Origin: a virus
Lineage: Duplodnaviria > Caudoviricetes
Strand: one strand, 5' to 3'
DNA length: 64,000 nucleotides
Virus record (IMG/VR): IMGVR_UViG_3300047313_000057
Span: 32,001 to 96,000 of that record
Position numbers and translations under genes: made by a program. A model generated the notes under the pieces. It saw only the letters and a list, made by a program, of their open reading frames with translations. It made no database searches and had not been told where the DNA came from. Of this stretch, positions 21,180-59,002 are shown piece by piece. Each line of letters opens with the position of its first letter. Position 1 is the stretch's first letter.

Positions 21180-21553
21180 CAAATATTTGCTCCACGGGCG
21201 AGACGTCGAGCGTCGAGAAACTGCCATTTGACCATCTCGTTTAGTAAGTCCTCACGACTCTTGCTGCTACTTCTGGGTTCGCGTCCCAAGACTTCTTTCG
21301 CAATATCGCGCATTTTCTCTTTGGTGATCGACTTATCTGAACGAAGCTTGGCAATAAGTTCATCAAACTTTGCACTATCTAAGTATGCGCTTTTCAAGCT
21401 ACTGCCGTATCCTGTTCCCCCGGCACTGCTTCCAGATGTGAACTGCCCGAATTCACCGCGGGGGTGCTTTGCCTCTTCGAAATCGGCGTCCATGACTATA
21501 TCGCGCAAACCTGCGTGCGGACTGTCACGTCCACCCCAACGGCCCATTGTCAT
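21179..21553 (-). CDS. Putative head-cargo protein (GRWGGR leader + KHPRG motif + helical domain)
   Basis: Coupled at both ends (ATGA and TGATG); motifs and domain shared with other genes in the window. Confidence 0.7.
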   Translation of the reverse strand: MTMGRWGGRDSPHAGLRDIVMDADFEEAKHPRGEFGQFTSGSSAGGTGYGSSLKSAYLDSAKFDELIAKLRSDKSITKEKMRDIAKEVLGREPRSSSKSREDLLNEMVKWQFLDARRLARGANI

Positions 21554-21924
21554 GCTCCGTTCTGTAACGTGACGCTCACCTTAGTGAAGGTGGACCACTG
21601 TTCAAGCACGGCCGTCGTCAACCAGACAGAGCCGTCCGTGAACGTAATCAGATCGCCGCCCTGCTGCGTCCATCGCACGGCACCCGCGACAGGACCCGGA
21701 AAATAAATGGTACGCGACGATCCTTGGATGTTGAGGGCGTCCAACTGGCGCAAGTCACGGTGCGTCAATTCCTGCACCTGTGCTTGCACTACGATCGGCG
21801 TCGCATAGCTCGGGGTGCGGCTGCCGTCGGCGTTCGTCACGTTGCCGGTCGAGAGCTGGACGGCCACGTTCTGCATGGGGTTGACCACGGCGATCTTGTT
21901 CGCCGTGATGCCGAAGAGGTTCAT
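21550..21924 (-). CDS. Head closure (head-tail joining) protein
   Basis: MNL.GI....I..VNP, AQVQ.L...DL..LD.LNIQG, GGDL....G..WL...VLEQW. Confidence 0.8.
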   Translation of the reverse strand: MNLFGITANKIAVVNPMQNVAVQLSTGNVTNADGSRTPSYATPIVVQAQVQELTHRDLRQLDALNIQGSSRTIYFPGPVAGAVRWTQQGGDLITFTDGSVWLTTAVLEQWSTFTKVSVTLQNGA

Positions 21925-22232
21925 AAAATGATTCTAGTGATTTCTAGGACCGGACTTGCTTCGATCCAACGGTCCATGTTCGTTTTACATGAAAATGTCC
22001 GCGAGAAGTTATGACCGTCACTATAGATGCCAGATATAGTGTACGGACCATCATTCGGAGGTGGCGATGTCGGTGAAGGATTTGCCTGTTGAAGCGCTAC
22101 CATATCCTGCATTTTTTCCCTGTATGCTGCAAGCATGCGCTCTCGTGTGAGAGGGAGCCCCATTATGGTATCCACCTTCGCGTCAAATCCGGGATCATTT
22201 GTAGGAAGCCCCCTAGGAACGAAAGTTTGCAT
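21921..22232 (-). CDS. Hypothetical protein (lower GC)
   Basis: ATG 22232; stop overlaps the next start. Confidence 0.5.
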   Translation of the reverse strand: MQTFVPRGLPTNDPGFDAKVDTIMGLPLTRERMLAAYREKMQDMVALQQANPSPTSPPPNDGPYTISGIYSDGHNFSRTFSCKTNMDRWIEASPVLEITRIIL

Positions 22233-22236
22233 TTTG

Positions 22237-22557
22237 CTAATCTTTCCACTCCACGCACACCCGCGGCAGCCCCGTGTTGCTCTTCTGCCCGTCCTTCCCT
22301 GCGTTCTCGCGCTTCTCGACCACCTTGCCCTTGCGGCCGTTGAACACATAGGTCTTGCCGATGACGAGGCCGCGATAGACCCCGTAGCGCACGGAAATCC
22401 ATTCGCACGCGCCCTGATCGATGGCGAGATTGGGCGAGACGTTCTCGCGCCCGCCGCGGCGGCCGATGGACCGCAGCATGACGCTGAGCGGCGATTCCTC
22501 GGTGAAGTCGCGGGTGCCCGCGTATTCGCTGACGCGCCCGCCGTGCCGGCCGGTCAT
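22237..22557 (-). CDS. Putative head-cargo protein with GRHGGR leader
   Basis: ATG 22557 in an ATGA overlap; begins MTGRHGGRVSEYAGTRD. Confidence 0.65.
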   Translation of the reverse strand: MTGRHGGRVSEYAGTRDFTEESPLSVMLRSIGRRGGRENVSPNLAIDQGACEWISVRYGVYRGLVIGKTYVFNGRKGKVVEKRENAGKDGQKSNTGLPRVCVEWKD

Positions 22558-22793
22558 CTGTTCCACCATTTGCGGCGCTCCGAATAGTCCTTCGGCGGAC
22601 GCGAATACTTGAGTTTGGGCTTCTTGAACACCGGCCCATCGCGCTCTGGCGGATAAACGATGATGCAGCCGTCCGGGATGGTCGGCCAACCGGTGAGGGT
22701 CGGCCAACCGGTGACGGTTGCCCCGGTGTATTGCTGACAACTGCAGCATGTCGCCGTGCACGAACAATGCACCGGCATGGGCCACGCAATCAT
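22554..22793 (-). CDS. Small Cys-rich hypothetical protein
   Basis: ATGA overlaps at both ends; CSCTATCCSC. Confidence 0.5.
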   Translation of the reverse strand: MIAWPMPVHCSCTATCCSCQQYTGATVTGWPTLTGWPTIPDGCIIVYPPERDGPVFKKPKLKYSRPPKDYSERRKWWNR

Positions 22794-23740
22794 GACGCCC
22801 TCGCCAGCGCGATGGTATCCGTGCGCAGGTTCATCTTCACCTCGGCGAGCGCTCGCCCCAGGCAGTGCTGCGGGGTCAGCATCTCCTTGAACTTGGCGAA
22901 CTGCGCCGCGTGGACGCCCTTGTAGCCCATGGCCCGGGTCATCACCGCGAGGTTCATGAAATGATCGAGGTCCTTGGCGAACTTGACGATCTGCGGCCAT
23001 GGCGAATCGTCCGAGGCCGAATGCGGCTCGGCGACCACCGGCCGGCCCAGGCACAGCGCGGTGTTGCACCGTGTCGATGAGATCAGCCCCATCTCGTCGT
23101 ATTTGCGGATCTGCAGGATCACCCGCGCCTCGCGCATGATGCGGTCGCGCGTCACCTGATCGGGGAATGTCGCCTCGACCCGGACCGCCTTCTCAGTGCC
23201 GATGAACCGCGCCAATGCTTTCAGGATCTTCAGCCGGCGCTTGGACAGCGAGCCGAAGAACCCGAAGTCGAACTGCGGCTCGACGCCGTCGGGCGCGCGC
23301 ACTAGGCTCGGCGCATAGCCGAGTTCGATGTAGGCCGCGGGCGCCCATTGATTGTACCAGTCGTGGACGTGGGCGCCCGGCACCAGATAGAGGATCGCCT
23401 CGGCAAACTCGGCGGCACGGGGGAATTCGGACTGCCGCTTGACCATCTCGGCATCGCGCCCGTGGTTGAACCCCTTGGGCGTCGGTTCTTCGGTGGCGAT
23501 GAACAGGAAGCGGGCCCCCTGTGCATGGGCGCGCCGCAGCACCTCGGTCGATCCCGGCGTGAAGCCCTCGACGATGACGTTGATGCCCGAATCCGGCATC
23601 AGGAAGCGGTCGTTCTTCGGCTCCCACACGACGTTGTGGCCCAGCGCCTTGAGCTGGTGGCCGACGATGCCCATCGGGTCTTCGAGGGAGCGCTGGCCTA
23701 ACACGTTATGGTTGAAGAGATTGAATAGAAGTTGTGTCAT
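22790..23740 (-). CDS. Putative GT-B glycosyltransferase (paralog of 31930..32844)
   Basis: FDFGFFGSLS.RR..IL, RD.....A.V.L.I, S..R...AL..G..VVAE pattern. Confidence 0.65.
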   Translation of the reverse strand: MTQLLFNLFNHNVLGQRSLEDPMGIVGHQLKALGHNVVWEPKNDRFLMPDSGINVIVEGFTPGSTEVLRRAHAQGARFLFIATEEPTPKGFNHGRDAEMVKRQSEFPRAAEFAEAILYLVPGAHVHDWYNQWAPAAYIELGYAPSLVRAPDGVEPQFDFGFFGSLSKRRLKILKALARFIGTEKAVRVEATFPDQVTRDRIMREARVILQIRKYDEMGLISSTRCNTALCLGRPVVAEPHSASDDSPWPQIVKFAKDLDHFMNLAVMTRAMGYKGVHAAQFAKFKEMLTPQHCLGRALAEVKMNLRTDTIALARAS

Positions 23741-24468
23741 CGCACGATCATCCTCAGCGCCTGTTGCAGGCGCTCCTCGCGCGGCCATTCCTGCGCCGCG
23801 AGATCGCGCGAAAACGGCCCCTCCATGCCGTCCGTGCAGCTTGCCGCGCACCACCGCGCCCAGATCAGCAGGCGCGGCCGGCGCTGCGGGCGCGGCGCCA
23901 TGTGGCATCCGTGCGGATCGATGAAGAACGTCGTGCCCGCAGGGCCCAAAACCGTCCGAGTCGGGCGCGCCGGGCGGTAGCCGTTGTAATTTTCGCCCCT
24001 GTCCTCGTCGCGATGTGACCCGATCTCGTAGAGATGCGCGCCGTCGTCGAACGATTCCACGTCCGTCCCGTACATGAATGCGACCAGCATGCGCGGGTTG
24101 TCGCGGTCGCGGTGCCAGTCGTGCGTATCGCGATAATGGTGCGGCGACGGCTGGGTGACGAAGGCGCTGATCGAGTAGAGCAGCGCCTCCTCGCCGAAAT
24201 AATCCGCGGCGATGTCGTAGCTGCCGAGCGCCCAGGTCAGATAATGGGGTGCGGCAAGGACCTCATCGCGATCAAGGCCCATCATCGGCCAGCCGGGGTT
24301 TCCCCACACCTCGTCCAGCCGGGCGCGTCGGCGGCCGGACCCGAAGGTATGGTTGTCGCTGCATGGCGCCTGCTTCAAATGGTGCAGAAGGGCTTCGAGC
24401 TTTCCGGCAGACAGCGGCTCTCCGACGGCGGCGCCGTCGCGGCGCAATTCTTCAGCGATATCGGTCAT
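23737..24468 (-). CDS. 2OG-Fe(II) dioxygenase (PhyH-like)
   Basis: WHRD.D, G.H.Y..GSH, GPAGT.F..D..G.H facial-triad pattern. Confidence 0.75.
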   Translation of the reverse strand: MTDIAEELRRDGAAVGEPLSAGKLEALLHHLKQAPCSDNHTFGSGRRRARLDEVWGNPGWPMMGLDRDEVLAAPHYLTWALGSYDIAADYFGEEALLYSISAFVTQPSPHHYRDTHDWHRDRDNPRMLVAFMYGTDVESFDDGAHLYEIGSHRDEDRGENYNGYRPARPTRTVLGPAGTTFFIDPHGCHMAPRPQRRPRLLIWARWCAASCTDGMEGPFSRDLAAQEWPREERLQQALRMIVR

Positions 24469-25073
24469 GTCGGATAATAAGCCGGCCAGAGCTCCAGATA
24501 GCGCGCATGATCGCTGTCGAAATGCCGGTGCTTGTTCGTTTCGATGGCCTCCCGACCCTGATGCTGGATCCGGGCGTCCCGGCAGATCGCAACCGATCCG
24601 CCGGCTTCCCAGCAGCGCATCGAAAAATCGACATCGCCGTAGAAGCTGGCATAGGCCGGATCGAAGAAGCCGATCATGGCGATGGTCTTCCTCGACGTCA
24701 TGCCCCAGCGGGCATAGGGCCGTATGCCGGCCCGGCAGCCATCGTCGCCGACGAAGAACTCGCCGATGAACGGCGGGGAATGCCGGTCGATGAACTCCAT
24801 CATCGTCTCAAGGCAGCGGGTCGTCGGCTTGATTTCGTCGGACAGCCACGCGACGTGCGTGCTTTTCGAGCGGGTGTGGTCGAGCGCGAGCGCGATCGAG
24901 GCGGCGCTGCCGATGCGGTCGTCGTGCACGTTGGTCGCGCGCTTGACCTTGAACGAGGGCGAGGCGACGACGACGTCGAGGGTGATCGAACTGCAGGCCC
25001 GCAGGTCGTCCACGAGAATCTGCGTGAGCCGGCGCGAGCGCGCCGCGGGAATGATGACGGAACAGAGATTCAT
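24465..25073 (-). CDS. Glycosyltransferase family 2
   Basis: SVIIP, IGFFD.....Y.D.DFS.R...AG motifs. Confidence 0.75.
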   Translation of the reverse strand: MNLCSVIIPAARSRRLTQILVDDLRACSSITLDVVVASPSFKVKRATNVHDDRIGSAASIALALDHTRSKSTHVAWLSDEIKPTTRCLETMMEFIDRHSPPFIGEFFVGDDGCRAGIRPYARWGMTSRKTIAMIGFFDPAYASFYGDVDFSMRCWEAGGSVAICRDARIQHQGREAIETNKHRHFDSDHARYLELWPAYYPT

Positions 25074-25840
25074 CTGATCGCCATGATGGCCGAAGGATCG
25101 TGGTTTTGCCGGATCGTGCAGTCATCCGTCACGAGATGCGCATGAGCGCCGACGCTGACGTTGACGTTGAAGTCCTGCAAGACCGCCGTGTTCCAGCCCC
25201 CGCCATAGCGCGGTGCCCAGCGCGCGACGAAGCGGTGATAGTCCGCCGGCTCATAGAGTTTCGACTTGCGCACGACGTCGACCAGGCGGCCGTCGGTGTC
25301 CTTCGACAGGAAGATCGCCGGCCGGCTGGAAAAGGCACAGAAGCCGCCGAGGTTCCACACGCGCATGCCGAGATCGCAATCACTGAAGCCCTGCCGGTAA
25401 TCGCCGTCGAACCAGCCGGCAGACACCGCCCCGGCGCGCCGCATCATCGGGAAGTTCGGATAGTACAGGCCGAAGCAGGTCCCGGCCCAGTCGCTGCCGT
25501 CATGGCGGTCGTAGCGCAGGCCCATCACCAGCGGCGTGGGACGGGCGTTTTCGAGTGCCTCGAATTCCGGGATGAGCCATTCGTCCCAGCCATCGCAGAA
25601 CTCGAAATCGTCGGCCAGCGCAATGACGAAATCGCCCTTTGTCCATTGCAGTGCGGCATGCTGAGCCGCAGCCGCCCCGCGCGGTTCGTGTTCCAGCACC
25701 CATACGGCGGACGGGGGCGGACGCTCTGGGCTGACGACGACGATCTCATGGCTGCAGCGCGTGCCTCGTTCAATGCTGGCAACGCAGCGGGCGAGGTCAT
25801 GCGGGAAGATCGACGGGATGATGATCGAGACTACGGGCAT
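25070..25840 (-). CDS. Glycosyltransferase family 2
   Basis: VSIIIP, EIVVV, GDFV..LADD, GWFD..Y..G..D.DL..R motifs. Confidence 0.8.
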   Translation of the reverse strand: MPVVSIIIPSIFPHDLARCVASIERGTRCSHEIVVVSPERPPPSAVWVLEHEPRGAAAAQHAALQWTKGDFVIALADDFEFCDGWDEWLIPEFEALENARPTPLVMGLRYDRHDGSDWAGTCFGLYYPNFPMMRRAGAVSAGWFDGDYRQGFSDCDLGMRVWNLGGFCAFSSRPAIFLSKDTDGRLVDVVRKSKLYEPADYHRFVARWAPRYGGGWNTAVLQDFNVNVSVGAHAHLVTDDCTIRQNHDPSAIMAIR

Positions 25841-26735
25841 TCAAGTCTTGAACCTTTGCCAGGACATCCCGCCAGAACACGCGCGGATGATGGTGCTCTG
25901 TCACATGGGCGTGGAAGCGTCCGGCCATATCCCTGAGCGCATCGTCATTGCCGCGAGCCCAGGCGATCTTCTGCAGGGCGTCTCCGGGATCCTGGTATTG
26001 AAGGTAGAGGTCGTCCGGAAACCACTTGGCTGTGCAGGCGTTGGCCTTTTCGAGGCAGCATGCTCCAGCCCAGCCTGCTTCGATCACGCGCCCTTTGACG
26101 TGCATGCCCCGGCCGGTACCCATGATAGGATGATTGGGGACGATTTTGCAGCCACCGAGAAAGCGTCCCATGTCGTGGGGCGACATCCCGTGACGGCGAT
26201 CAAGCTGCGCATGATCGATCAGCACGTGCACGAAGGCGATACGCTCCGCATGACCGCCGTCCTCTCCGGCCATGCCGAGAAATGTCGGCCTCGAATCCCA
26301 GGCCATCGGCACGAATAGTTCCGGGTCCGTCGGCGTCAACTTGACGATCCCGTTGGTAAAGCCGGCGAGCGGCGTGTTGAGGTTCCCATCGATGCTGACC
26401 TGTGCCGAAAAACATTGCTCCCTGTCGTACCGGATCAGCCAGTCCCACCAGTAATCATCGCCCGCATCGCAGCAGATGAGAATCGTTGGGGCCAGATCAT
26501 GGATTCTTTTGAGGATGTCCACGGACGGAACTGGACGATTGTAATACTGCTCCACCGCTCCGACATAGATGACGATCTCCGGCTTGAGCAACTCGACCAG
26601 CGCGACAATCTCGCTCTGACGGTCGTGCGAATAGATGTCGTATCGTTCGACATGGCAGACGTTGCCGGTGCAGATCCACGAGCGCCAGAAATTCTCGCAG
26701 TTCATCGAATGGCTGACGAGGAACAGGGCTTGCAT
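25797..26735 (-). CDS. CgeB/YkvP-like GT-B glycosyltransferase
   Basis: HVKGRV.E.G.AGA..LE....WF C-terminal motif; paralog of 27346..28233. Confidence 0.7.
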   Translation of the reverse strand: MQALFLVSHSMNCENFWRSWICTGNVCHVERYDIYSHDRQSEIVALVELLKPEIVIYVGAVEQYYNRPVPSVDILKRIHDLAPTILICCDAGDDYWWDWLIRYDREQCFSAQVSIDGNLNTPLAGFTNGIVKLTPTDPELFVPMAWDSRPTFLGMAGEDGGHAERIAFVHVLIDHAQLDRRHGMSPHDMGRFLGGCKIVPNHPIMGTGRGMHVKGRVIEAGWAGACCLEKANACTAKWFPDDLYLQYQDPGDALQKIAWARGNDDALRDMAGRFHAHVTEHHHPRVFWRDVLAKVQDLNARSLDHHPVDLPA

Positions 26736-26749
26736 GCGTCAGACCTCGA

Positions 26750-27349
26750 TCATCTCAATAATGTCGCCAGCAGTCCGGTGTCACGCATATTCCTTGCAAG
26801 ATCGGCGTGGGAATATCCTGGTATCAATGTCGGCTCGACACCAAGACGGCGCGCCATGTGAATGTCGAGTTCCGTACCTGGGCCGTCGCTGACGAACGCC
26901 TTGATGTTGGAGGTGCAGCCACCCTTGAAGAGGGGAAGAAGATCGTCAATCGTGAATGGATCGTGTGGCGCCGGCGCCACACGATGGTGCCATTTCGGAT
27001 CAATATCATCTGTCGCCGTGCCGGTGGTCACCGGTGATATTGCGATGATCTCTTCGACTCCAGCAAGTTGTCCATACAGCAGTGCCGCATAGGCGCCGGA
27101 AGACACACCTGCCGTCTTGACGCGGTAGCGTCGCGCAAGATCGCGCAGATAATCGGCGACGGCCTGCCGATCACCGATGCCTTTGATGCCGTGCTGATAC
27201 CAGCGCGTCGCCGAATCTCTGAACAGAACATGAGGCAACTGGAGAGCGCTCAACAACCGGCCGAATTGAAACACATGCTGCGTGCCTGCAGCAAATGCAG
27301 CAATACATGTCGAATTCCCGGCGTGAAGTCTCTCTTCAAAATCGATCAT
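26750..27349 (-). CDS. Alpha/beta hydrolase (esterase/acyltransferase-like)
   Basis: G.SSGAYAALLYG nucleophile elbow; FRD...WY..G; late His. Confidence 0.7.
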   Translation of the reverse strand: MIDFEERLHAGNSTCIAAFAAGTQHVFQFGRLLSALQLPHVLFRDSATRWYQHGIKGIGDRQAVADYLRDLARRYRVKTAGVSSGAYAALLYGQLAGVEEIIAISPVTTGTATDDIDPKWHHRVAPAPHDPFTIDDLLPLFKGGCTSNIKAFVSDGPGTELDIHMARRLGVEPTLIPGYSHADLARNMRDTGLLATLLR

Positions 27350-28233
27350 AGAACACAGGCTTTCGTCAGAACCTTGTCCCAGAATACACGCGGATGATGC
27401 TCCCGTTCGACCTTGTCATGAAATCGCGCGGCGACATCATCGCCCGCTTGCGTCCTGATGATGGCCTCCACTTCGTCGATCGTTTGGGCCGCAAAATATT
27501 CATCAGGACGGAACCAGTCCCCCATCAGAGATGGACCGTATTCGATGAGTGCGGCTCCGGCAAAGCCACACTCGACAACGCGACCCTTGACATGGGATCG
27601 CGTGCCGGTTCCCGTCAACGTGTGGTTAAACACGAAACGGGAATTGCCGATGATCGCGGCCATGTCCGCATAGGACCGGCTCGGGGACATCTGATAGAAC
27701 TGCAGGAGGCCGCGTTCGCACAACCGCGTAATCACATGGCTTCTATCACCGCCGCCGATGTTGCCGACGAAACTGAACGGAATCTCCCGCTCATGCCATG
27801 GCCGCGGAGAAAACACGCGCGTATCCACAGGTGTCAGCAACGTCATGCCTTCGGAAAACGCCGAGAGCGGCGCGTCATGGCCGCCGTCGATGCTCACCTG
27901 AACGGTGAAGCATGCCTGATCGTGATAAGTCTGCAATTGCGGCCACCACGGCGGATCGGCGGCATCGTCGCACATATGGATGAACGGTGTCACATCGCGG
28001 ATTCTTCGCAGAATATCGACATTCGGCACTGGGCGGTTATGAGATTGTTCGCAGGCGCCGATGAAGACCGCAAAATCCGGCGCTACGCGGCGCACTTCTT
28101 CAACAAGTTCACCATGACGGTCGTGCGGTCTGTCGTCGTACTGAATGAGATGCACATCATGCCCTGCGGCCTGCAGCGACATCCATTTGTTTTCACAGTC
28201 GGACGAAAAGGTATGAAACACAACCGCTTTCAT
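27346..28233 (-). CDS. CgeB/YkvP-like GT-B glycosyltransferase
   Basis: FSFVG.....R, Y.....NS..V.N, HVKGRVVECG.AGA, F.P.EY. Confidence 0.75.
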   Translation of the reverse strand: MKAVVFHTFSSDCENKWMSLQAAGHDVHLIQYDDRPHDRHGELVEEVRRVAPDFAVFIGACEQSHNRPVPNVDILRRIRDVTPFIHMCDDAADPPWWPQLQTYHDQACFTVQVSIDGGHDAPLSAFSEGMTLLTPVDTRVFSPRPWHEREIPFSFVGNIGGGDRSHVITRLCERGLLQFYQMSPSRSYADMAAIIGNSRFVFNHTLTGTGTRSHVKGRVVECGFAGAALIEYGPSLMGDWFRPDEYFAAQTIDEVEAIIRTQAGDDVAARFHDKVEREHHPRVFWDKVLTKACVL

Positions 28234-29009
28234 GATACGACAAGCCTGATTGCTTCCTGGATCTCCGGATCGGCCGGATAGCGGTCACCGATCAGCGCCT
28301 TTGGTACAGGACGCAGATCATCCCATCCGTAGGCCGCAGGAGGATCACTGACGCCGTAACGTGCCCATATGAACAGCCGCGGTCCACTGCGCGGGCGCTG
28401 TCCCATATGAACGCCGAAGGGTTGTTCGACAAACAGTGTTCCGGCAGGCCCTTTGATCGTGATGATTGCTTCCGGCGGTGGATTGCCATTGGCGGGACTA
28501 TGAGATGAACCGCGCTGATACAAATGGAAGCCGTCATTCAAGACATCGGTGCCGAACATGAACAAGCCGAGTTGCTTGCGATCGTCTTCGTCGCGGTGCC
28601 AGTCATGGGTTTCGATATAATGCCCGCTTCCCGGCTGGGTCCAGAAGCAGTGCAACGAATAAAGGCGCGGAAACTCGCCATCAAAATACTGTTTGACCAG
28701 CGGAAATACGCTGATCGCGCATTCCAGCCAATGCGGAGCCCCGACAACCGTCTCCATCGTCGGGGCGAACGCGGGCCATTCCCCATCGGACCGGGCTTGG
28801 CGCATCGTCTTGCTGCCCGCCGGAAATTCCGGCACTTTCGATCTGGAGGCGACATGCGCACGCCAGACCGGGCGCTCGTCCATGTAGGCGATCATTTCGG
28901 CGAGTTCCTGCTCACCGAATCGGCTCGGCGCAATAACGACGCCATCGCGCCGTAAATCGTCAAGCAAAGCCGTCCATTCAATCAACGGCATTTTCATCTG
29001 CATCATCAC
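28230..29009 (-). CDS. 2OG-Fe(II) dioxygenase (PhyH-like), paralog of 23737..24468
   Basis: THDWHRD.DD, GPAGT.F.....G.H, PRL.IWAR shared with the paralog. Confidence 0.75.
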   Translation of the reverse strand: MMMQMKMPLIEWTALLDDLRRDGVVIAPSRFGEQELAEMIAYMDERPVWRAHVASRSKVPEFPAGSKTMRQARSDGEWPAFAPTMETVVGAPHWLECAISVFPLVKQYFDGEFPRLYSLHCFWTQPGSGHYIETHDWHRDEDDRKQLGLFMFGTDVLNDGFHLYQRGSSHSPANGNPPPEAIITIKGPAGTLFVEQPFGVHMGQRPRSGPRLFIWARYGVSDPPAAYGWDDLRPVPKALIGDRYPADPEIQEAIRLVVS

Positions 29010-29050
29010 TGCGCCGCCGCCCGCTCCCGTGACACTTCCTCCAGCAGCTT
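29006..29050 (-). repeat. Diverged duplicate of the radical SAM gene 3' end (copy of 30394..30444)
   Basis: Encodes KLLEEVSRERAAAQ* versus KLLEEAHAPRERVAAQ*. Confidence 0.8.
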
Positions 29051-29125
29051 GCCTGACTTCAAGCGCCGCAGACTTATGGTCATTTCACATGCCTGTCACA
29101 GAGGCATGCCGATATGAGACGGCTC

Positions 29126-29458
29126 TCATATCGTCTTAAAACTTCCAGACGGCTGGAAAGAACCATTCTGAAACAAAACGATAATCTGCGTTCCAGTCAA
29201 GTTGCCAGATGGCGTGTTCTGCTTCTGAGTAACCAGCGGATCCCCAGCGCTATCCACTTCGATTACGGTTGGCGCATATGACGGTGTCACTTCTGTACCG
29301 GCTTGCCAGCCTCGTGATACCGCGGCGGCATCTGCGGTTAATATAAAGGCACTGCATACAATATCCCCGACGCGAACGGAATTGGGATTTACGGAACACT
29401 GAACGTCTGCGGATGTAGAGTCTACACCCGTCACCGTAGCCATGTAAAACAGTTTCAT
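29126..29458 (-). CDS. Hypothetical protein (AT-rich island)
   Basis: GGAG RBS; 110 aa; beta-rich. Confidence 0.55.
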   Translation of the reverse strand: MKLFYMATVTGVDSTSADVQCSVNPNSVRVGDIVCSAFILTADAAAVSRGWQAGTEVTPSYAPTVIEVDSAGDPLVTQKQNTPSGNLTGTQIIVLFQNGSFQPSGSFKTI

Positions 29459-29479
29459 TGATCTATCTCCGTCTCTAGC

Positions 29480-31908: not shown

Positions 31909-31929
31909 CCATCACCTTTCATTTGCGGA

Positions 31930-32844: not shown

Positions 32845-32914
32845 TCCCCTTCCTCCTATGGTCCACAGGATATGGATCATAGGAGTTAACGTTTCCTTAG
32901 AAAAGTGCCGGCTA

Positions 32915-33373
32915 TTAATCCGCCTCGGCTACCTGAGCACAAGAAATCCCGTTGCGCCGCCACATGGCCACGACGATCGATCGATCCTCGAATGCCATTA
33001 TCGGTTTGTAGCCATCGGTTCTGATCTGTGCCAGATATTCCTCCTTGACAATGTCGTCATCACGTCGGTCATGATGATCTTCATCCTTGCGCATATAGAC
33101 GCGGGGATCTGTGATGCCAAGATGCCGTGAAAGCCATTCCTGCGTCTTGACGCGAACACGATCAGGGCGGCCTGTGGCGAACAGGATCACTTGATTCGCA
33201 GAAATGAGCGTTTGCGCCAGCGAGATCATATGCGTGATAGGCGCATCATCCTTACATGCTTCGAAATATGTATCCCAGTCCTTTGGTTCACTCTCCAAAT
33301 GATGCTGACGATGCGCAGGATCAGCAAGCGTGCCGTCAACATCAAAGAGATAACATGGAATTGCTTCAATCAT
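32915..33373 (-). CDS. HAD-family phosphatase (polynucleotide kinase 3'-phosphatase-like)
   Basis: FDVDGTLAD, TGR, MR...D.R.D..VK, EDR..VV.MWR..G..C.QV. Confidence 0.85.
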   Translation of the reverse strand: MIEAIPCYLFDVDGTLADPAHRQHHLESEPKDWDTYFEACKDDAPITHMISLAQTLISANQVILFATGRPDRVRVKTQEWLSRHLGITDPRVYMRKDEDHHDRRDDDIVKEEYLAQIRTDGYKPIMAFEDRSIVVAMWRRNGISCAQVAEAD

Positions 33374-33385
33374 GGCGCGGTTTTG

Positions 33386-33550: not shown

Positions 33551-33588
33551 CTGCTGTATCTCCGGAGTCATCGCTGAAAGACTCTTGC

Positions 33589-46530: not shown

Positions 46531-46635
46531 AGAAAGCTTTCCCAGATGCGTCTACTGTGCCTACAATAATAGCTTTTTCCCCTTAATAAAAGGAAACCAA
46601 CAGAAATGTACCTGCTACACAAATGTAGCAACTCG
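46088..46635. repeat. 15-bp direct repeat AAATGTAGCAACTCG (46088..46102 and 46621..46635) flanking an AT-rich island
   Basis: Exact match seen in the sequence. Confidence 0.75.
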
Positions 46636-47724: not shown

Positions 47725-48816
47725 TCAGACGCCCAAAAGTGACGAAATTGCAAAGGGTTGGCGGATGATGGCTCCCCATGTTCCGGCCAGCACTTTTTGT
47801 CGGAAACTTGAAAGTTGTCGAACTATAGGTTGCGCATGCATCTTCTCGTTGTAGGCCGCATACCCCGTAACCTGCCCTTCCACCTCCTCCGCGATAAGCT
47901 GCACGAGATTGCCCGCCGACTGCCCCTGCGGGTTCGACGTGCTGGTCTTGCCGTACTGGACCGCCGTCTCGAACCGGATGTTGGGGAAGTTCTTCTTGAG
48001 AAGATCGAACACGTTGACGTTGAACGTGTTGGTCGCCGTCAGCGCCACTTCCGAATTGGGCGACATCGCCAGCACCATCTTGGTGTCGGCTTCGACCAGA
48101 CCCTGCGTCTGGCTGATGAGCTGGAAGAACAGCGCCTGGATGTCGTTGAACACCTCGTTCGCGGTGGCATTGATGCTGCCGCCGGTGGTGAACCAGGTGG
48201 TGCCGCCCGCGGCCTTGGTCGCCGGGGTGATCGAGGCGGTCAGCGCCGGATCGTTGAGGAGGCCGTAGTTTTGCAAACCTGCTACTCCGAAGAAGTAAGT
48301 CAAGTTTGAAAACTTATTCAAAATAGTTGCGGCTCCCTGGTCGATTTCGGAAACCCAGTTAATACGCGCCAAACCTGCACGTTCTAACTCGCGGTCACCA
48401 TACTCTTTAATAGTTTGAAAAAGGTATGCCTGCCTTTGTGGCCAAATTGTGTTAACATTCGCGCGCCCGCTTTCCGCGAAGTCGCCGTAGGAACTCACCT
48501 CTCCCGTGTGCTCGACGGTCGGGAACATGGCGGTCTCGTCCAACCACGTACCCTTCCTCACCTCGCCCAGGATCACCGCCGCCCGGTTGGGGGCGAACAG
48601 GATCTTGAACACCGCGGGATCGATCATCGTGGTGAGGAACAGCGGCACGCCGGCGTTGGGCGTGGTGGCGAGGGCCGGCAGCGCGTCCATCGCCATCTCG
48701 AAGTTGCGCTTGAACTCCTCCGGGACGTAGCTCACCACGTCCGGAAGGGTGACGCCGCGGGCGACGAGCTGAGCGGAATCGGCCGCATAGGCGGCCATGG
48801 CTTCTTGAAGATTCAC
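47725..48816 (-). CDS. Major capsid protein (DUF2184 family)
   Basis: GTG start with AAGGAG; DP.V..IL.AP..A..I.GE..KG.W, YGD, RQ.Y.FQT...YG..E, F.QK...GTWG.II.QP. Confidence 0.9.
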   Translation of the reverse strand: MNLQEAMAAYAADSAQLVARGVTLPDVVSYVPEEFKRNFEMAMDALPALATTPNAGVPLFLTTMIDPAVFKILFAPNRAAVILGEVRKGTWLDETAMFPTVEHTGEVSSYGDFAESGRANVNTIWPQRQAYLFQTIKEYGDRELERAGLARINWVSEIDQGAATILNKFSNLTYFFGVAGLQNYGLLNDPALTASITPATKAAGGTTWFTTGGSINATANEVFNDIQALFFQLISQTQGLVEADTKMVLAMSPNSEVALTATNTFNVNVFDLLKKNFPNIRFETAVQYGKTSTSNPQGQSAGNLVQLIAEEVEGQVTGYAAYNEKMHAQPIVRQLSSFRQKVLAGTWGAIIRQPFAISSLLGV

Positions 48817-52052: not shown

Positions 52053-52053
52053 C

Positions 52054-52941
52054 TCAGTCGCGGTTATGGAAGTTGAAGTGGAATATGAGGCATGACAAAT
52101 CGGCCCCGGATTTGCGGAACTCCGACAGATCGACGAGCACCGGCTTGAACCCCATCACCTCGATCGTGCGCTCCAGCCGCTTGCGGCTGTCGGCTTTCTC
52201 CTGACCCGCCTCGTCGCGCGGGATATCGACCAGGATCTTGTCGTTGAGCCGCACGCCGTTGGTCCAGCCGTCATAGACGCAGTCCTTGGGGACCGGAATC
52301 AGATCGAGCACCGCCTCCAGCTTCTTCACGTCCGCCGGATCGAACACCGAGACCGAGGCCAGCGCCGCCTCGCCCGTGATCGGGAAGAATGAGCAGTCGA
52401 AGTGGTAGAGCTTCTCGTCGGTCATCCGGACCGGGATGACGTTGCAGCCCAGCTCTTCGGCCATCCAATCGTAGGTCTTGGCGTCGGTGCGGATGCCGCA
52501 GCCGCCGGCATAAAGGTTCCCGTGCAGGTACTTGAGATCCGCCTCGCCCTCCCAGAAATGCGGCGACTGCGCGATCCTGTAACCGAGGCCCTCGAAGAAC
52601 GCCGCCCCGACCTTCTCCTCGCCGCGCCGCGGCCTGGACTTGAAGTTCGACAGTGCCACCGTGCCGTCATGCGGCAGGTACGCGCCGATGTTGGCGACGA
52701 ACGGCAGGTCCTGGAGGTCGTCCTGCCCGTAATCCGGCATGACCATCACGAGGGCATCGTCCGCGGTGAGCGCCTGGTAAAGATCGCGCCATTGCGAGAA
52801 CGCCTTCTCGTAATCGTAGGGCTCGCCCTCGGTCTCCTTCATCAGCGGATTGTTGGCGGCGCGGTTGTCGACCGTATAGGGAAAGTTCATCATGAAGGCC
52901 GGCGTATCGAGCTGCGAAGGCAGCATCACCCGGTTGGCCAT
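52054..52941 (-). CDS. Amidinotransferase/dimethylarginine dimethylaminohydrolase family protein
   Basis: N..M, QW..L, D..F.AN, R.GE, EGE.D, YH.D, SEF.K.G....C pentein motifs. Confidence 0.85.
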
Positions 52942-55001
52942 TTCCCCGCGTCCCGGTAGAGCCATATCTTGCCGATCCGCTCCGGCTGGAAATACTTCTT
53001 GACGAGGTCGATGACGGCGCGCGGATCGAACGCCGCACAGGAAAACAGGTCGAAGTAGAGGCACCACTGGTCGTCGTCGCCGTGGAAGGTGATCGTCGAT
53101 GTCGTGATGATCTGCACCGCGGTCAGGCCGCGCCCCTCCTCTGGATTATCGACGCGGACCACGATCAGGTCGCCGATCGGCTTCATCTTGGTGATGGCGA
53201 GCAAATCTTTGAAGAACGCCCGCACCGTCGTCTCGTCGTCGATCCCCTCGTTGCACCCGGAAATGTCGAGGATGAGATGATAGCCCCAGTGCTTTCCGGC
53301 CTCTGACTTCTTCGGATTGTCGGCGACTTCGATCGGAGCTTCCAGCGTACCGGTCTCATCGCCTGTCATGAAGGCGCGGCCGTGGCGGAGCACAAAACCC
53401 TCGACCGAACGCGGGCGGCGCCGCGCCTCAAGTTCGAGGCAGCCTCTGACCAGTTCGTCCTTGGCTTTGGCGCGCTTGGATAATTCCTTTTCTGCCCCTT
53501 TCGACGCGTTCTCCTTCATCCATGCAAGCGTTTTGCGTATCGTATCGTCGAACTCGGCCTTTCGCTTGGCTTCGTCGGGCTCCATGTTCGACTCGCGGCG
53601 CGCCGCGCGCACGTTAAGCATGTTCCACTTGGCTATCTCGTCGATCATGCCCTTGCGCGTTTTCTCGCGGGTATTGGGGTGGCCCATGCCGGCCGAGATT
53701 TGCTTCATCGTTTCGAGGCTGATGCTTTTGTCCGCCTTCAGCTTCGCAAGCAGTTCATCGAACTTGGCCGGGTCGGCGTAGTTTTTGTAAAGCCCATCGA
53801 TGTAACTTTGCGAACTCGATACCGCCGGTTTTGGCTTCGCCTCCTTTTCCGCCATCGGCTTCTTCGGTTTCACGCCTTTGTTGCTCCCGATAGGAGTCTT
53901 TTCGCTCTTGACCTCCCTTGTCGTTGCACTCACGTTGAGCGCAGCGCTCATGAGCGTGTCTTTTGGAATCTGCTCGGAAAGCTCGTTGATCCAAGCTGCC
54001 AAGTCTTCCTTCGTCGGCTCGCCTTTGAACTCGGCCTGATAACCCTTCTTGGTGAGCTCGCTGCCAAGACTAGCGGCAGCCTCTGGAACCTTCAGCTTGC
54101 GCCGTGTCAGCAGGAGATAGGAAATCTCCTTCGCAGGGCCGCTTATTTCGGCCTTCGGAGGCTGCTTTTTTGATTTCCCTTTTCCATGCAGTATCTGCTG
54201 GAGTTCGACGAAATGCTCCGGCGACAGCTTGTCGCGAAGGAAATCCTCAAGGGCCTGTATCTTCGCTGCTTGGCCGCCGCTCTTCTTTTCGGCCTTAGCC
54301 TTCGCGGTTTTCTCGGTGCCAGCGTTGCCCCCGCCTCCGCCGCCTGACGTAAACTGCCCGGCATTGCCCGGCTGCCCGCGCGGATGTTTACCTTCCTCCC
54401 AGTCGGCATCCGATGCGGCGAGAACTTCGTGCTCTTCATCAAAGGCCGCGTCTTCGCCGCGTGCGAACGATTCATCAATCGCCCGCTCGCCGTCTTCATT
54501 ATCGTCCGGCGGATACCTGATCGTGTCGCGCACCGTATTGCCGCGATCCTCCCGGCCATCCTGCCCCATCCCCTTGATGGTCGAGACAAGCCCCGGATGC
54601 GTTGGCTTGGGCGGCGCCTCCAGCGGCACCCAGGCATGGCCGTTGTGCTCGCCGTTGAGCCGCGGCTCCAGCGCCTTCGGCACTTGAACCATGAACGTCG
54701 TATAATCGACGTCGGGGGTCGCGGTATGGCCGACCATCTTCAGGGATCCCGGATCGTTGATGACGATGCCGGTCTCCTCCTTGAGTTCCCGCATGGCGGC
54801 CTGGACCGGGATCTCGTGCGGCTCGACCCCGCCGCCCGGGATGCTCCATTCGCCCGGGTGATCGCCCTGGCCCGAGCGGCGCAGGAACAGCGCCCGGCCG
54901 TCAGGTGTAACCAGCAGGATGCCGGCGGCGCGCATCGCGGCATCGGCGGCCTTGCGCGCCAATGGAATGCCGGCATTGGCTGCGGTCGCTGCTGCGGTCA
55001 T
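52926..55001 (-). CDS. Polyprotein: NUDIX hydrolase + KHPRG motif + helical domain + SpeD-like pyruvoyl decarboxylase
   Basis: Nudix box GGVEPHE....AAMRELKEETG; C-terminal WGYHLILD..C, I.TS.IT.H, Y.DLFSC..FD; internal in-frame ATG at 53369. Confidence 0.85.
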   Translation of the reverse strand: MTAAATAANAGIPLARKAADAAMRAAGILLVTPDGRALFLRRSGQGDHPGEWSIPGGGVEPHEIPVQAAMRELKEETGIVINDPGSLKMVGHTATPDVDYTTFMVQVPKALEPRLNGEHNGHAWVPLEAPPKPTHPGLVSTIKGMGQDGREDRGNTVRDTIRYPPDDNEDGERAIDESFARGEDAAFDEEHEVLAASDADWEEGKHPRGQPGNAGQFTSGGGGGGNAGTEKTAKAKAEKKSGGQAAKIQALEDFLRDKLSPEHFVELQQILHGKGKSKKQPPKAEISGPAKEISYLLLTRRKLKVPEAAASLGSELTKKGYQAEFKGEPTKEDLAAWINELSEQIPKDTLMSAALNVSATTREVKSEKTPIGSNKGVKPKKPMAEKEAKPKPAVSSSQSYIDGLYKNYADPAKFDELLAKLKADKSISLETMKQISAGMGHPNTREKTRKGMIDEIAKWNMLNVRAARRESNMEPDEAKRKAEFDDTIRKTLAWMKENASKGAEKELSKRAKAKDELVRGCLELEARRRPRSVEGFVLRHGRAFMTGDETGTLEAPIEVADNPKKSEAGKHWGYHLILDISGCNEGIDDETTVRAFFKDLLAITKMKPIGDLIVVRVDNPEEGRGLTAVQIITTSTITFHGDDDQWCLYFDLFSCAAFDPRAVIDLVKKYFQPERIGKIWLYRDAGKWPTG

Positions 55002-55710: not shown

Positions 55711-55852
55711 CGCACAAACCTCGCCGGTTCATTTCCCATAAAACGTCGTTACGCAGTTCCCAGACATCTTCGCCATCGACTTCACGATCATACAGGCGCT
55801 CTTCATATTCTATCAGAGCTGCATCGGTCCAACCGTCCCAATCTGCCATCAC
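55637..55852 (-). CDS. Small acidic hypothetical protein
   Basis: GTGA overlap with the MuF stop. Confidence 0.4.
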   Translation of the reverse strand: MMADWDGWTDAALIEYEERLYDREVDGEDVWELRNDVLWEMNRRGLCGDHANPAARHQPPDGDDHRGGPIA

Positions 55853-56682
55853 GTCAATCCAGGCACCACAGGCTTGCTCACGCAACGGCAGTTAACCAAA
55901 AACCCGGGTTGTATCCACATTTTTTCATCGGGATCCCACATGCCGCGCGCAATGTCGAACGTGCGTCCGTTCATCGCCACATGCGCCGGCCGCGGCGTCT
56001 TGCCGGCCGACGAATGCAGCCACACGGCTTCCGTGATCCCGATTTCGAGATGCCGCACCCGGCTCAGCGCCGCCGTGGCCTTGTTGGACTGATCGCGGGA
56101 TATCAGCGCCGCCCGCCGCTTCGTAGCGCCGAATTGCCTCTGCAGCGTCTTTGCGAGATCGTCGAGCTTGCGCCCGGTCTGTACCGAACGCGCCACATGG
56201 CCTTCCACCGCGCGCAGGTACTGTTCCGGGATCGAGCGGATCAGCGCCACGTTCTGCTCGACCGTCGCCCCCAGGACGTCGTTCTGGGCCCGGCTGAGCC
56301 GGAACTCGACGGAAAACCCGGCCTTCTTCAACGCAGCCTTGAGGGCGGCATCCGACCGATCGGCGACGCTTTGCGCGAACCAGTCGGCGAGATCGTCGGC
56401 AAGGATCGAGAACCGGCGCCGCCAGCGGCGCCCGAGCGCGGCGACCGTGCGCATCAGTTCGGCGATCGGGGAGTCGTCAGTCGCAAGAGACTGGGACAAT
56501 TCCACGACTTCCGGGGGGTTCTTCTTATAGGCCGCGGAGAGCCAGTAGAGGACGCTGCCGTGCATCTCCGCGATGAGAGCGGTGAGCCGGCGGCGGTATT
56601 CGGACTCGATGCCAGCGTTGGCGCGGATGGGGCGGAGCGTCTTAGGTTTGGGGCGCGGCCTAGGGCGGGGCGGATTTGGCAT
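55849..56682 (-). CDS. Head morphogenesis protein (MuF/SPP1 gp7)
   Basis: NV.LI.SIP.QY, RA.LI.RDQ..K, W.HS.....RP.H, PG...NCRC. Confidence 0.9.
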   Translation of the reverse strand: MPNPPRPRPRPKPKTLRPIRANAGIESEYRRRLTALIAEMHGSVLYWLSAAYKKNPPEVVELSQSLATDDSPIAELMRTVAALGRRWRRRFSILADDLADWFAQSVADRSDAALKAALKKAGFSVEFRLSRAQNDVLGATVEQNVALIRSIPEQYLRAVEGHVARSVQTGRKLDDLAKTLQRQFGATKRRAALISRDQSNKATAALSRVRHLEIGITEAVWLHSSAGKTPRPAHVAMNGRTFDIARGMWDPDEKMWIQPGFLVNCRCVSKPVVPGLT

Positions 56683-56962
56683 TGGCCTCCGCCTTGGCGT
56701 CCTCTTCATTCGCGGCCACGTCCAGGAGCAGCTGCATCGCGATGCCCTCGGTGCGCCCGCGGTAGAGCCAGTCGAGCGTCAGGCCGGGAACGGCGTCGGC
56801 GAGCTTGTCGGCGACCTCGACCGGCAGCAGCACCCCGGCGCTTTCGTGCTTTGCCATGTGCGCGGCGGCGATGTCCAGCGTCTGCGCCAGTTCATGGCGC
56901 CCCAGCCCGAGAAGCCTCCGGATGGCCTGCAATCTTCGTCCGACGGCTGCCCTGTCGATCAT
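56660..56962 (-). CDS. Xre-family HTH protein
   Basis: VG.RL..IR...GL...ELA..L, E.G, LDWLY.G. Confidence 0.75.
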   Translation of the reverse strand: MIDRAAVGRRLQAIRRLLGLGRHELAQTLDIAAAHMAKHESAGVLLPVEVADKLADAVPGLTLDWLYRGRTEGIAMQLLLDVAANEEDAKAEANAKSAPP

Positions 56963-57671: not shown

Positions 57672-58068
57672 GGCCCAACGCGCCGGGCTGATCTTCCCAT
57701 GTGCCACGTTTGCCGCTGTAGCGCGTTTCATGCGGTGCCGCGCTGCGCATGATGTACTGGCCTACCGCCGTCCAGATCATATTGTTGAAGCGCATCTCGT
57801 CGCAGACCAGGGTGCCACGATCACGCTTGCCGCCGCAGAATGTCAATGTTGCGCAGACGTGCCCCATGCCGATCGGTTCACGCTTTGAGGTATGCGTTGC
57901 CACCCGCAACAGCCCGTGCCGCCCTGCGAGCCGGTAGTACGTCGCCTCGCTCTTCATTGAGGCACAGACGTGGACGAACCCGGCCACCTTGAGAACCTCA
58001 GCGGCTCTCGCGGCAAGCAGCAGGCAGTTCTGTCGCGCCTCCGGGGGCTTGGGTCGCTTGCGTGGCAT
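57664..58068 (-). CDS. Hypothetical protein
   Basis: S..SEA.YY......LRVA.H motif. Confidence 0.6.
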   Translation of the reverse strand: MPRKRPKPPEARQNCLLLAARAAEVLKVAGFVHVCASMKSEATYYRLAGRHGLLRVATHTSKREPIGMGHVCATLTFCGGKRDRGTLVCDEMRFNNMIWTAVGQYIMRSAAPHETRYSGKRGTWEDQPGALGHA

Positions 58069-58082
58069 TTTTCCGGGAGCGG

Positions 58083-58220
58083 TTAACCTTGATCTACCCC
58101 GCCGATGTTACCCTTGTTCTTGCTCGCGTAGAAGACCCGCTCGCCCTTCTCCGGTCCGTATTGCTCCTTCATCGACTCCATGATCTCCTCGCCCTTCGGC
58201 GTCAGCGGATCGGTCGCCAT
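58083..58220 (-). CDS. Small conserved phage head-region protein (45 aa, not in the ORF track)
   Basis: MATDPLTPKGEEIMESMKEQYGPEKGERVFYASKNKGNIGGVDQG; TGATG coupling. Confidence 0.75.
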   Translation of the reverse strand: MATDPLTPKGEEIMESMKEQYGPEKGERVFYASKNKGNIGGVDQG

Positions 58221-58552
58221 CACCTCAGTTTTTTTTTAACTCCCGGCGGCTGGTCCGACGTCATCTTGTGGTCGGTCTTCTTGGCCATGTTCGGAGATCC
58301 GGGCTTTTCGCCGGGCGGTTTGGAATTGCCGGAATCGCGCTTCTCGCCCAGCATCTCCTTGTTGACGCCGCTCTTGTTGGCGGCCGGCTTGAAGCCGGAG
58401 ATCTTCTCGCCCTCCAGCTCGCGGCCGACCGAACCGGTCTTTGGCGCCGAGGTGAATGCCGGTTTGCCCAGGGTCTCGCCTTGCGCTGCGGGGCCGACGT
58501 CCTTGCCGATGTGGGGGCTTGCCCTGCCGCCCCAGCGTCCTGTACCTGCCAT
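58220..58552 (-). CDS. Putative head-cargo protein with GRWGGR leader (Lys/Gly-rich, disordered)
   Basis: GGAG RBS; begins MAGTGRWGGRASPHIGKD. Confidence 0.65.
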   Translation of the reverse strand: MAGTGRWGGRASPHIGKDVGPAAQGETLGKPAFTSAPKTGSVGRELEGEKISGFKPAANKSGVNKEMLGEKRDSGNSKPPGEKPGSPNMAKKTDHKMTSDQPPGVKKKLR

Positions 58553-58555
58553 GAT

Positions 58556-59002
58556 CTATTCTCCCGGATGCTTGCGGTAGTGCAGCTCCTTGCGCTTGTC
58601 GGTCTCGTCCTCCAGCGCCTTGGCGTTCTCTTCGGCGATGTACTTTTCCGCCTCCTGCTGGGTGTTGAACTTCTTGACCTTGTCGGCCGGCCCCTTTTCG
58701 GGATCGTTGCCGGCGTCGGAATCGACGACATGCCACGGCTGGGACTCGACGGCGACGTAGCGCAGCTCGAAGCGGGAGCCGTCGCGGGCCTGGTCGTAGC
58801 CGCGCACGTACTCGGGCGACATGCCGCTCGCGTGCTCGCCCATGGCATGCGGCGGGCGGCCGGTGCCCTGCGTGCCGGAGAACGGCGCCGCCTTGGCATC
58901 GAGGCGGTGGCCCTTCTCGGTCGCGTTTTCATCGCGGGCGACGCGGCGGAAGTCACGGCTGCCGGCCGTGCCGCTCGATCTGCCGCCCCATCTGCCGGTC
59001 AT
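58556..59002 (-). CDS. Putative head-cargo protein with GRWGGR leader
   Basis: AGGA RBS; begins MTGRWGGRSSGTAGSRD. Confidence 0.65.
   Translation of the reverse strand: MTGRWGGRSSGTAGSRDFRRVARDENATEKGHRLDAKAAPFSGTQGTGRPPHAMGEHASGMSPEYVRGYDQARDGSRFELRYVAVESQPWHVVDSDAGNDPEKGPADKVKKFNTQQEAEKYIAEENAKALEDETDKRKELHYRKHPGE

Follow-up and report, generated by a model that had tools for sequence, protein, structure and literature searches.

Why do several unrelated small proteins of one bacteriophage begin with the same short peptide? The question is raised by a stretch of 64,000 nucleotides (the window) which comprises bases 32001-96000 of the IMG/VR virus record IMGVR_UViG_3300047313_000057, a 118,244-bp genome with direct terminal repeats, a GC content of 62% and a CheckV rating of complete. 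Almost all genes of the window lie on the minus strand and together form the late structural region. Four of them, here called A, B, C and D, open with a leader built around the hexapeptide GRWGGR, which a preliminary description had likened to the capsid targeting sequence of phage T4. In this work we have compared the leader and its carriers with other phages and examined the head proteins encoded beside them. The reading we favour, at a probability of about one half, is that the leader is a protease-removed capsid-targeting tag which brings variable cargo into the head; its partner, its presence in virions and the targeting itself are predicted from the genes.

The leader and its four genes

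Both the listing of open reading frames (ORFs) and six-frame scans place GR[W/H]GGRxSxx[A/I]G(x)[R/K]D directly after the start codon of the four minus-strand ORFs (Table 1). The leader reads MTGRWGGRSSGTAGSRD in A, MAGTGRWGGRASPHIGKD in B, MTGRHGGRVSEYAGTRD in C and MTMGRWGGRDSPHAGLRD in D, and a Shine-Dalgarno-like motif lies upstream of each of the four ATG codons; this motif and the GC content at third codon positions in A-C speak for coding frames. For gene C an alternative start at 22569, which adds MVEQ, is possible, and its product holds a second, degenerate internal copy, GRRGGRENVSPNLAID. The whole 118,244-bp genome contains no copy beyond those of A-D. The extended pattern occurs four times in the genome and was absent from all of 200 shuffled versions (100 mononucleotide and 100 trinucleotide-block). 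Pairs of leaders share 8-11 identical residues but merely 2-6 identical codons, and at the two invariant Arg positions five codons are in use (AGA, AGG, CGC, CGG and CGT); because the synonymous codons differ, the conservation is at the peptide level. Behind the leader the proteins are unrelated, with pairwise BLASTP giving no match or E >= 0.5. Four unrelated proteins of one phage thus carry the same short N-terminal peptide. The preliminary description had claimed just this, namely a leader common to four ORFs, conserved as a peptide and followed by complete divergence, and the comparisons bear it out. It knew of no description of the motif, and none was found here: Pfam assigned no family to A-D, their sole PHROG match was the KHPRG stretch of D (phrog_30637, E 9e-4), which lies outside the leader, ten further leader proteins had no Pfam or PHROG match on the motif, and a full-text literature search found no paper with GRWGGR or RWGGR. 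Nor does a hydrophobic stretch, as in a Sec/Tat signal peptide, follow the motif in the leader sequences.

What do the four leaders precede? In protein A the leader is followed by a disordered linker and then by a small alpha/beta cargo domain, for which the ESM Atlas offered no usable lead. The AF2 model of this protein is of low confidence (pLDDT 54) and was used solely for its disordered N-terminus, the first ~73 residues being predicted as disordered. In the orthologues P0013 and P0024 the leader and an FRR[VI]ARD stretch are invariant. Protein B continues with a basic, Lys/Gly/Pro-rich cargo (pI 9.9) which has no Pfam or PHROG match, and its gene is coupled by a TGATG overlap to an ORF of 45 codons. 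The product of this ORF starts with M-A-T-D-P (MATDPLTPKGE...VFYAS...GVD) and carries a module, ..YGxxKGExVFYASxNKGxIxGVD, which in P0066, P0058 and P0033 comes after a GRWGGR leader and in P0028 precedes one. This module, DGGPGSGP, WSPEAREAAAKAR and the DUF3008-like and DUF6496-like units form a set of short modules which are exchanged between the small proteins. In protein C the second copy is followed by a small basic cargo domain, and the orthologues P0020 and P0042 have kept both copies, the second ending in LAAD or LGMD. Protein D has a KHPRGxxGQF motif and a helical domain, and a head-module fusion protein of the same phage, here called NUDIX-SAMdc, contains two segments paralogous to its cargo (residues 198-219 and 400-473; E 7e-6 and 2e-15). 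Genes A and B are among several small ORFs that lie between the portal and MuF genes, gene C beside the gene of a head protein (phrog_1912), and gene D between the latter and the Neck1 gene.

The motif in other phages

Is the leader confined to this genome? When IMG/VR was scanned with a degenerate DNA pattern, four further contigs proved to contain the motif, each time in frame in a small ORF. With a profile built from eight leaders, 37 proteins were retrieved from a set of 5.8 billion proteins, and 47 at E<=1e-3 among 1.84 billion cluster representatives, which were scored exhaustively; pooled, the two protein searches yielded 70 proteins with 98 copies of the motif. The consensus is a 15-residue unit, (M or D)(S)GRWGGRASDKAGARD, in which Gly1, Arg2, Gly4 and Arg6 are invariant or nearly so, while Trp3 is found in 71, Ser8 in 84 and Asp15 in 82 of the 98 copies. 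The N-terminal restriction expected in the preliminary description proved to be a bias: 61 copies begin at one of the first 12 residues, 32 are internal and 5 are C-terminal, and two or three copies are present in 25 of the 70 proteins. The copies therefore show what is typical of encapsulin loading peptides, a short conserved peptide on diverse cargo which may stand at either terminus or be repeated.

As a control, the same DNA pattern was run over 596 Gb of prokaryote genomes. It gave 37 matches, nine of them with the strict peptide in frame; these nine come from Arg-rich frames in genomes of 57-75% GC, without a start codon before any of them, and the matches resemble chance occurrences. 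Among cultured phages, tblastn of the 24-residue consensus leader against 50,697 records found no match, although this search was restricted by the short query and by low-complexity filtering, and the first 40 kb of PB1 contain no GRWGGR; on these grounds no cultured carrier is known. When the two-copy protein P0008 was used as the tblastn query, three phages were matched, through its DUF3008-like module only. The closest cultured relatives of the major capsid protein are only ~50% identical and come from ~45-kb phages, so that the phage belongs to an uncultured myovirus-like lineage.

Where the flanks of a contig were long enough, the leader genes could be placed in their context. They lie between portal and MuF (L004, 108-kb contig of P0002), directly (L003) or close (L098) upstream of the portal gene, directly downstream of it (L100), after the capsid genes (L087) or after the sheath gene (L002), and L086 likewise has its leader gene in a head/neck-type position. 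A DUF2213 protease and a DUF2184-like capsid protein are encoded in all five motif-bearing contigs with enough sequence. On the other hand, 80 IMG/VR loci whose portals are 44-54% identical, and which have similar protease and capsid genes, show no motif within 10 kb of the portal gene. The co-occurrence of the leader with DUF2213/DUF2184 suggested earlier is thus true of the motif-bearing contigs and is not a general feature, as many relatives at ~50% identity do without the motif. Judged from these similar loci, the motif is a lineage-specific addition and not general to DUF2213/DUF2184 phages. The cargo domains of A and C were absent from the other motif-bearing virus records, in which the leader alone matches, and the cargo set therefore turns over between phages, as expected for accessory head-internal proteins.

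Several further observations were made in these relatives. Genes with a KTSC domain occur near the leader genes in L004 (4011-4511), L086 (9525-10001), L098 (7443-7664) and L100 (8980-9210); the 80 motif-free portal relatives have no such gene. A KTSC-domain protein was considered as the receptor of the leader and dropped, since the studied genome has none. The portal of one relative is fused to a type IB topoisomerase and that of another is interrupted by an intein (L098 1755-4970; L100 4535-7696). In L095, a complete relative of 109 kb, an open frame of ~269 codons comes right after the large terminase gene (G001, about 45.1-46.0 kb). Degenerate copies occur in it twice, as GRFGGRASEKSGQRD with SAVAMD behind it and as RRFGGRGSDKAGGRD, and it has a DUF6496-like module at its end; the terminase frame itself ends in ...SQMGRW just before the stop codon.

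Asp sites in head proteins and the DUF2213 protease

Which enzyme could remove such a leader? The DUF2213 domain of the protease-scaffold (PF09979, E 6e-47; phrog_2229, E 3e-107) spans residues 140-345 and is followed by an acidic linker. H219, S274 and H304 are invariant in 25 relatives, as would be expected for the Ser-His-His triad of the fold. The AF2 model of the domain has a mean pLDDT of 82, and herpesvirus assemblins and T4 gp21 take the top ranks in Foldseek. By VIA-align, T4 gp21 is the best PDB match (Z 10.6, root-mean-square deviation 2.9 A over 130 residues), with the assemblins at Z 6-9. According to this model DUF2213 has the T4 gp21/assemblin protease fold, and together with the invariant His/Ser/His residues it indicates that the phage encodes a prohead protease of this type. 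Proteases of the gp21 fold act inside the prohead in every studied system, namely T4 gp21, HK97 gp4 and herpesvirus assemblin.

The sites at which this enzyme may cut can be read from the head proteins. In an alignment of 26 protease-scaffold sequences, [A/G]-x-D is conserved at residues 147, 355, 394, 569, 633 and 682; the N-terminal edge of the protease domain reads L-A-x-D-R, the five further sites lie in the scaffold part, and the one at residue 682 is VAAD followed by E, ~22 residues from the C-terminus. The capsid protein has a predicted maturation site, E-M-A-M-D followed by A, and across its family [L/I/M]-A-M-D-A stands just before the ordered HK97 fold, with A-M-D-A in 29 of 39 loci. 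This site aligns to A-M-D, residues 62-64, of Pa193 gp26, whose cryo-electron microscopy model begins at residue 66 (PMC11456595). The same paper describes a density of ~16 residues beneath the Pa193 hexons that has no assignment, although the GRWGGR motif is lacking in PB1-like phages. In the PB1-like phage KPP12 the N-terminus of the capsid protein was determined by Edman degradation as SNFTAPVTTPS (PMC3474789), which begins with the residue right after A-M-D. The portal has a predicted N-terminal site, H-M-A-L-D, and hydrophobic-A-M-D recurs in portals across the family at a distance of ~60-75 residues from the N-terminus; in the Pa193 portal, both cryo-electron microscopy and liquid chromatography-mass spectrometry failed to show residues 1-93. 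PB1 itself has A-M-D-S in the capsid protein, the portal (residues 74-77) and the protease (residues 398-401). From the conservation of these sites in capsid, portal and scaffold and the one published Edman result in KPP12, we infer a cleavage rule in which the protease would recognize hydrophobic-[A/G]-x-Asp and cut after it; like the sites of T4 gp21, these would have an acidic P1 residue.

Throughout the DUF2213 phage group (L004-L085, and L101, which is PB1) the hydrophobic-[A/G]-x-Asp site has been kept at the junction of the capsid N-arm, in the N-region of the portal and in the scaffold, there six times, and it looks like a general Asp-specific cleavage rule; in the literature that we searched we found no statement of such a rule for DUF2213 phages. 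PB1 gp20, a protein of 68 amino acids encoded between MuF and protease (L101 12276-12482), resembles the DUF6496-like module of the leader proteins. According to the Pa193 paper, virions contain small unassigned ORF products from the MuF-protease region, which may correspond to PB1 gp20.

How do the leaders fit this rule? They end in small-x-Asp in 72 of the 98 copies, and 12 of them then have [A/G]-M-D within 12 residues, mostly as (I/M/L)-A-M-D, against a background in the same proteins of ~0.002 per residue. A, C and D have VARD, LAID and IVMD, respectively, between leader and cargo; in C this canonical site is the end of the second copy. Of the 37 copies which are not N-terminal, 8 are preceded by x-Asp-Ser, as in K-D-S-G-R-W. 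Since the leaders end in Asp sites or precede them, the leader proteins resemble substrates of an enzyme active within the prohead, and the Asp-terminated leader of the preliminary description is supported to the extent that its terminal Asp fits the [A/G]-x-Asp rule put forward for this protease family. A complex prediction from the leader alignment and the protease-scaffold alignment scored 0.00 against a mark of 0.32, which is no verdict and speaks neither for nor against a contact.

Table 1. Positions of the leader genes, predicted sites and neighbouring features in the window.
Feature	Position	Strand	Remarks
Portal, PF06381, with ~500-aa C-terminal extension	59730..62837	minus	genes A and B just downstream
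Portal, predicted N-terminal site H-M-A-L-D	62631-62645		residues 65-69
Portal extension, KHPRGxxGQF	60861-60878
Portal extension, zincin-like HEVMH	60324-60338
Gene A, 148 aa	58556..59002	minus
Gene A, leader	58952-59002		residues 1-17
Gene A, canonical site V-A-R-D	58931-58942		residues 21-24
Gene B, 110 aa	58220..58552	minus
Gene B, leader	58499-58552		residues 1-18, end G-K-D
45-aa ORF	58083..58220	minus	coupled to gene B
MuF-like head morphogenesis protein	55849..56709	minus	PF04233, phrog_324; bounds the portal-to-MuF interval, which holds leader genes in related contigs too
NUDIX - KHPRG - helical domain - AdoMet_dc-like fusion (NUDIX-SAMdc), 691 aa	52926..55001	minus	head-module protein
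Pentein-fold (DDAH-like) gene	52054-53067		overlaps NUDIX fusion gene
Protease-scaffold, DUF2213, 703 aa	49941..52052	minus	predicted processing enzyme
Cement protein			between DUF2213 gene and major capsid gene
Major capsid protein, DUF2184-like	47725..48816	minus	phrog_264 at 2e-59; GTG start 48816 behind AAGGAG ribosome-binding site
Capsid, predicted maturation site E-M-A-M-D, then A	48685-48699		residues 40-44
Homing-endonuclease-like ORF	46615-47496		phrog_655, E 9e-19
Sugar-modifying/glycosyltransferase-like gene block	22790-38139		partial Pfam hits
Gene C, 106 aa	22237..22557	minus
Gene C, leader	22507-22557		residues 1-17
Gene C, second copy	22417-22464
Gene D, 124 aa	21179..21553	minus
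Gene D, leader	21500-21553		residues 1-18
Gene D, I-V-M-D	21488-21499		residues 19-22
Gene D, KHPRGxxGQF	21455-21472

Several neighbours of these genes are of interest in themselves. The NUDIX/AdoMet_dc-like fusion and the pentein-fold gene lie directly upstream of the protease gene (52054-55001) and may be head-packaged enzymes or a polyamine-related pair. A homing-endonuclease-like ORF adjoins the capsid gene, and the sugar-modifying/glycosyltransferase-like block interrupts the structural operon, separating gene C from the head genes; beyond it the order is gene C, the phrog_1912 head protein, gene D, Neck1, tail terminator and DUF3383 sheath. The C-terminal extension of the portal contains a KHPRGxxGQF motif and a zincin-like HEVMH. 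The zincin-like HExxH domain was considered as the processing enzyme and dropped, as none of the other motif-bearing loci that were retrieved encodes a relative.

A proposed targeting tag and its alternatives

The Asp sites make the leader proteins look like protease substrates, and it may be asked whether the GRWGGR part has any role beyond this. The DUF3008-like module (PxVSExQxRAMxAA..GKSxLGIPxxVGKEF), which itself ends in A-x-D, is the N-terminal part of the protease-scaffold in 11 of 59 relatives, and likewise in Shewanella phage vB_Sb_QDWS, and it stands behind a GRWGGR leader in 17 of the 70 leader proteins. Since one and the same cargo module may be joined to a head-internal protein or stand free behind the leader, GRWGGR resembles an address rather than a part of the cleavage site, and the leader appears to stand in for a covalent link to a head protein. 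This supports the earlier view of the leader as a portable, peptide-level module on unrelated cargo, and its genes are indeed part of head and neck modules.

We hypothesize that the 15-residue unit is a portable, intrinsically disordered leader which marks passengers of the procapsid, a proposal to which we give the same even odds. The leader genes would be expressed together with the head and neck genes, as their position suggests, and the GRWGGR part would then bind a component of the assembling prohead, most likely the protease-scaffold or the inner face of the capsid shell, so that the cargo becomes enclosed. The Ser-His-His protease of DUF2213, built into the scaffold, would cut after Asp in [A/G/small]-x-Asp, both at the end of the leader and at the hydrophobic-[A/G]-x-Asp that often follows it, and it would also be the enzyme that trims capsid protein, portal and scaffold. 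By analogy with the internal proteins of T4, the freed cargo would stay in the head and probably leave it with the DNA.

A related but more tentative proposal, for which we see somewhat less than an even chance, is that GRWGGRxSxxAGxRD is a position-independent cargo-loading peptide, a viral counterpart of the encapsulin targeting peptides, which can be multivalent, binds the interior of the procapsid (scaffold or shell) and is clipped by the Asp-specific DUF2213 protease. A binding tag would account for the C-terminal and the repeated copies more readily than a classical propeptide.

How do these proposals compare with known systems? The T4 capsid targeting sequence, found on IPI, IPII, IPIII and Alt and cut by gp21, is likewise a short N-terminal tag common to unrelated, variable head-internal proteins, and the leader, too, may end at a site with an acidic P1 residue suited to a prohead protease of the gp21 fold, to which DUF2213 is so similar. 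The two have no sequence similarity, and P1 is Glu in T4 ([L/I]-x-E) and would be Asp here ([A/G]-x-D). The core of the leader is also far more conserved, with six near-invariant residues, it occurs in internal, C-terminal and multiple copies as well, and its predicted protease is fused to the scaffold. That foreign proteins can be targeted by the T4 sequence is established (reviewed in PMC3012670 and PMC9026906), whereas the role of the leader is predicted from genes alone. Like the leader, the cargo-loading peptides of encapsulins, compartments which are also made of an HK97-fold shell protein, are short and conserved, sit on a disordered linker, occur on diverse cargo, are sometimes repeated and have no fixed terminus. 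They differ from it in sequence and are not removed by a protease, and for GRWGGR the binding to the shell is a proposal only. In phiKZ-like giant phages and SPN3US, a gp21-like protease trims many proteins of the head interior, recognizing a small-x-acidic motif, as is predicted here; we know of no description of one common short motif in their propeptides, whereas here one 15-residue unit is common to non-homologous proteins and across phages. The propeptides of inner-body and ejection proteins in those phages are cut at [S/A/G]-x-E (PMC5694885, PMC10052503). Herpesvirus assemblin resembles DUF2213 in being a Ser-His-His protease fused to a scaffold, and its R and M sites in the scaffold recall the conserved site at residue 682 near the scaffold C-terminus. 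Herpesvirus scaffold sites consist of Ala followed by Ser, in contrast to x-Asp followed by Ser or Ala here, and to our knowledge assemblin works with no cargo tag. MuF-fused polymorphic toxins and the "polyvalent" head proteins follow another route into the head, in which the cargo is covalently fused. This phage uses covalent fusion too, in the portal extension and the NUDIX-SAMdc protein; its leader proteins, unlike the MuF-fused toxins, are free-standing. The concept is therefore known from T4, the giant phages and the encapsulins, and what appears new is this particular unit, strongly conserved, portable, sometimes multivalent and linked to a putatively Asp-specific DUF2213 protease.

Several of our own results weigh against a removable targeting tag. 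The leader's own end may not be cut here, because the residue two before its final Asp is S, G, T or L and not the near-invariant Ala of the other sites, and gene B has no canonical site nearby. The 37 of 98 copies that are internal or C-terminal do not suit such a tag, and a copy at the C-terminus is incompatible with a propeptide in the classical sense. Nor would cleavage by the protease establish GRWGGR as an address. The composition of gene D is atypical, with a GC content at third codon positions of 0.50 as against 0.89 in A, 0.79 in B and 0.90 in C. Finally, the 80 motif-free loci leave the receptor not obvious, since those phages have similar portal, protease and capsid proteins.

Could the unit be a processing signal only, whether an extended element at which the prohead protease recognizes its substrate or docks, or a pro-region that holds the cargo inactive or shows the place of the cut, while the proteins enter the head by other means? 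The conserved terminal small-x-Asp with canonical sites after it, the internal copies bracketed by x-D on both sides (8/37) and the several other short modules of the same proteins that are bounded by A-x-D would all agree with this. We consider it unlikely, since the canonical sites in capsid, portal and scaffold do without GRWGGR, so that the six most conserved residues of the leader are not needed for cutting, and C-terminal copies would release only 2-7 residues. It is more doubtful still that the unit is itself the product, either as a Gly/Arg/Trp-rich peptide freed in many copies in the head, similar to the internal peptides II and VII of T4, or as an RGG-like DNA binder. A composition like that of RGG boxes, the proteins with two or three copies and the bracketing Asp sites, which would free a 15-16-mer, speak for such a product, but most proteins have a single N-terminal copy before a distinct conserved cargo, and the invariant Trp, Ser and Asp, at a net charge of ~+2, suggest a specific pocket over charge neutralisation.

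Alternatively, the motif may act in the host after ejection, as a host-factor binding element, a degron or a localisation signal on injected or early proteins. Variable small cargo is indeed typical of host-directed accessory proteins. This seems improbable, however, as the genes lie in late structural modules and not in early regions, the motif ends in a protease site which it has in common with structural proteins, and no cellular homologue with the motif was found. Four of the five copies in the window are at start codons, and an element at the nucleic-acid level, for translation initiation or regulation, might be imagined there. We reject it on codon usage and regard it as close to refuted: identical residues, Arg above all, are encoded differently, and the motif also occurs in mid-protein and at C-termini in phages of other GC content.

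If the leader is a capsid-targeting tag, what would follow? Head proteins that are packaged and injected, anti-defence factors among them, are hard to predict from sequence. With a loading tag to go by, metagenomes alone would suffice to catalogue the head cargo of an entire clade of uncultured ~110-kb phages, and the tag would offer a second, T4-independent handle for packaging foreign proteins into capsids. The [A/G]-x-Asp rule, if true, would extend to cultured DUF2213 phages, including the PB1-like Pseudomonas phages used in therapy, and would predict the mature ends of capsid protein, portal and scaffold in DUF2213 phages.

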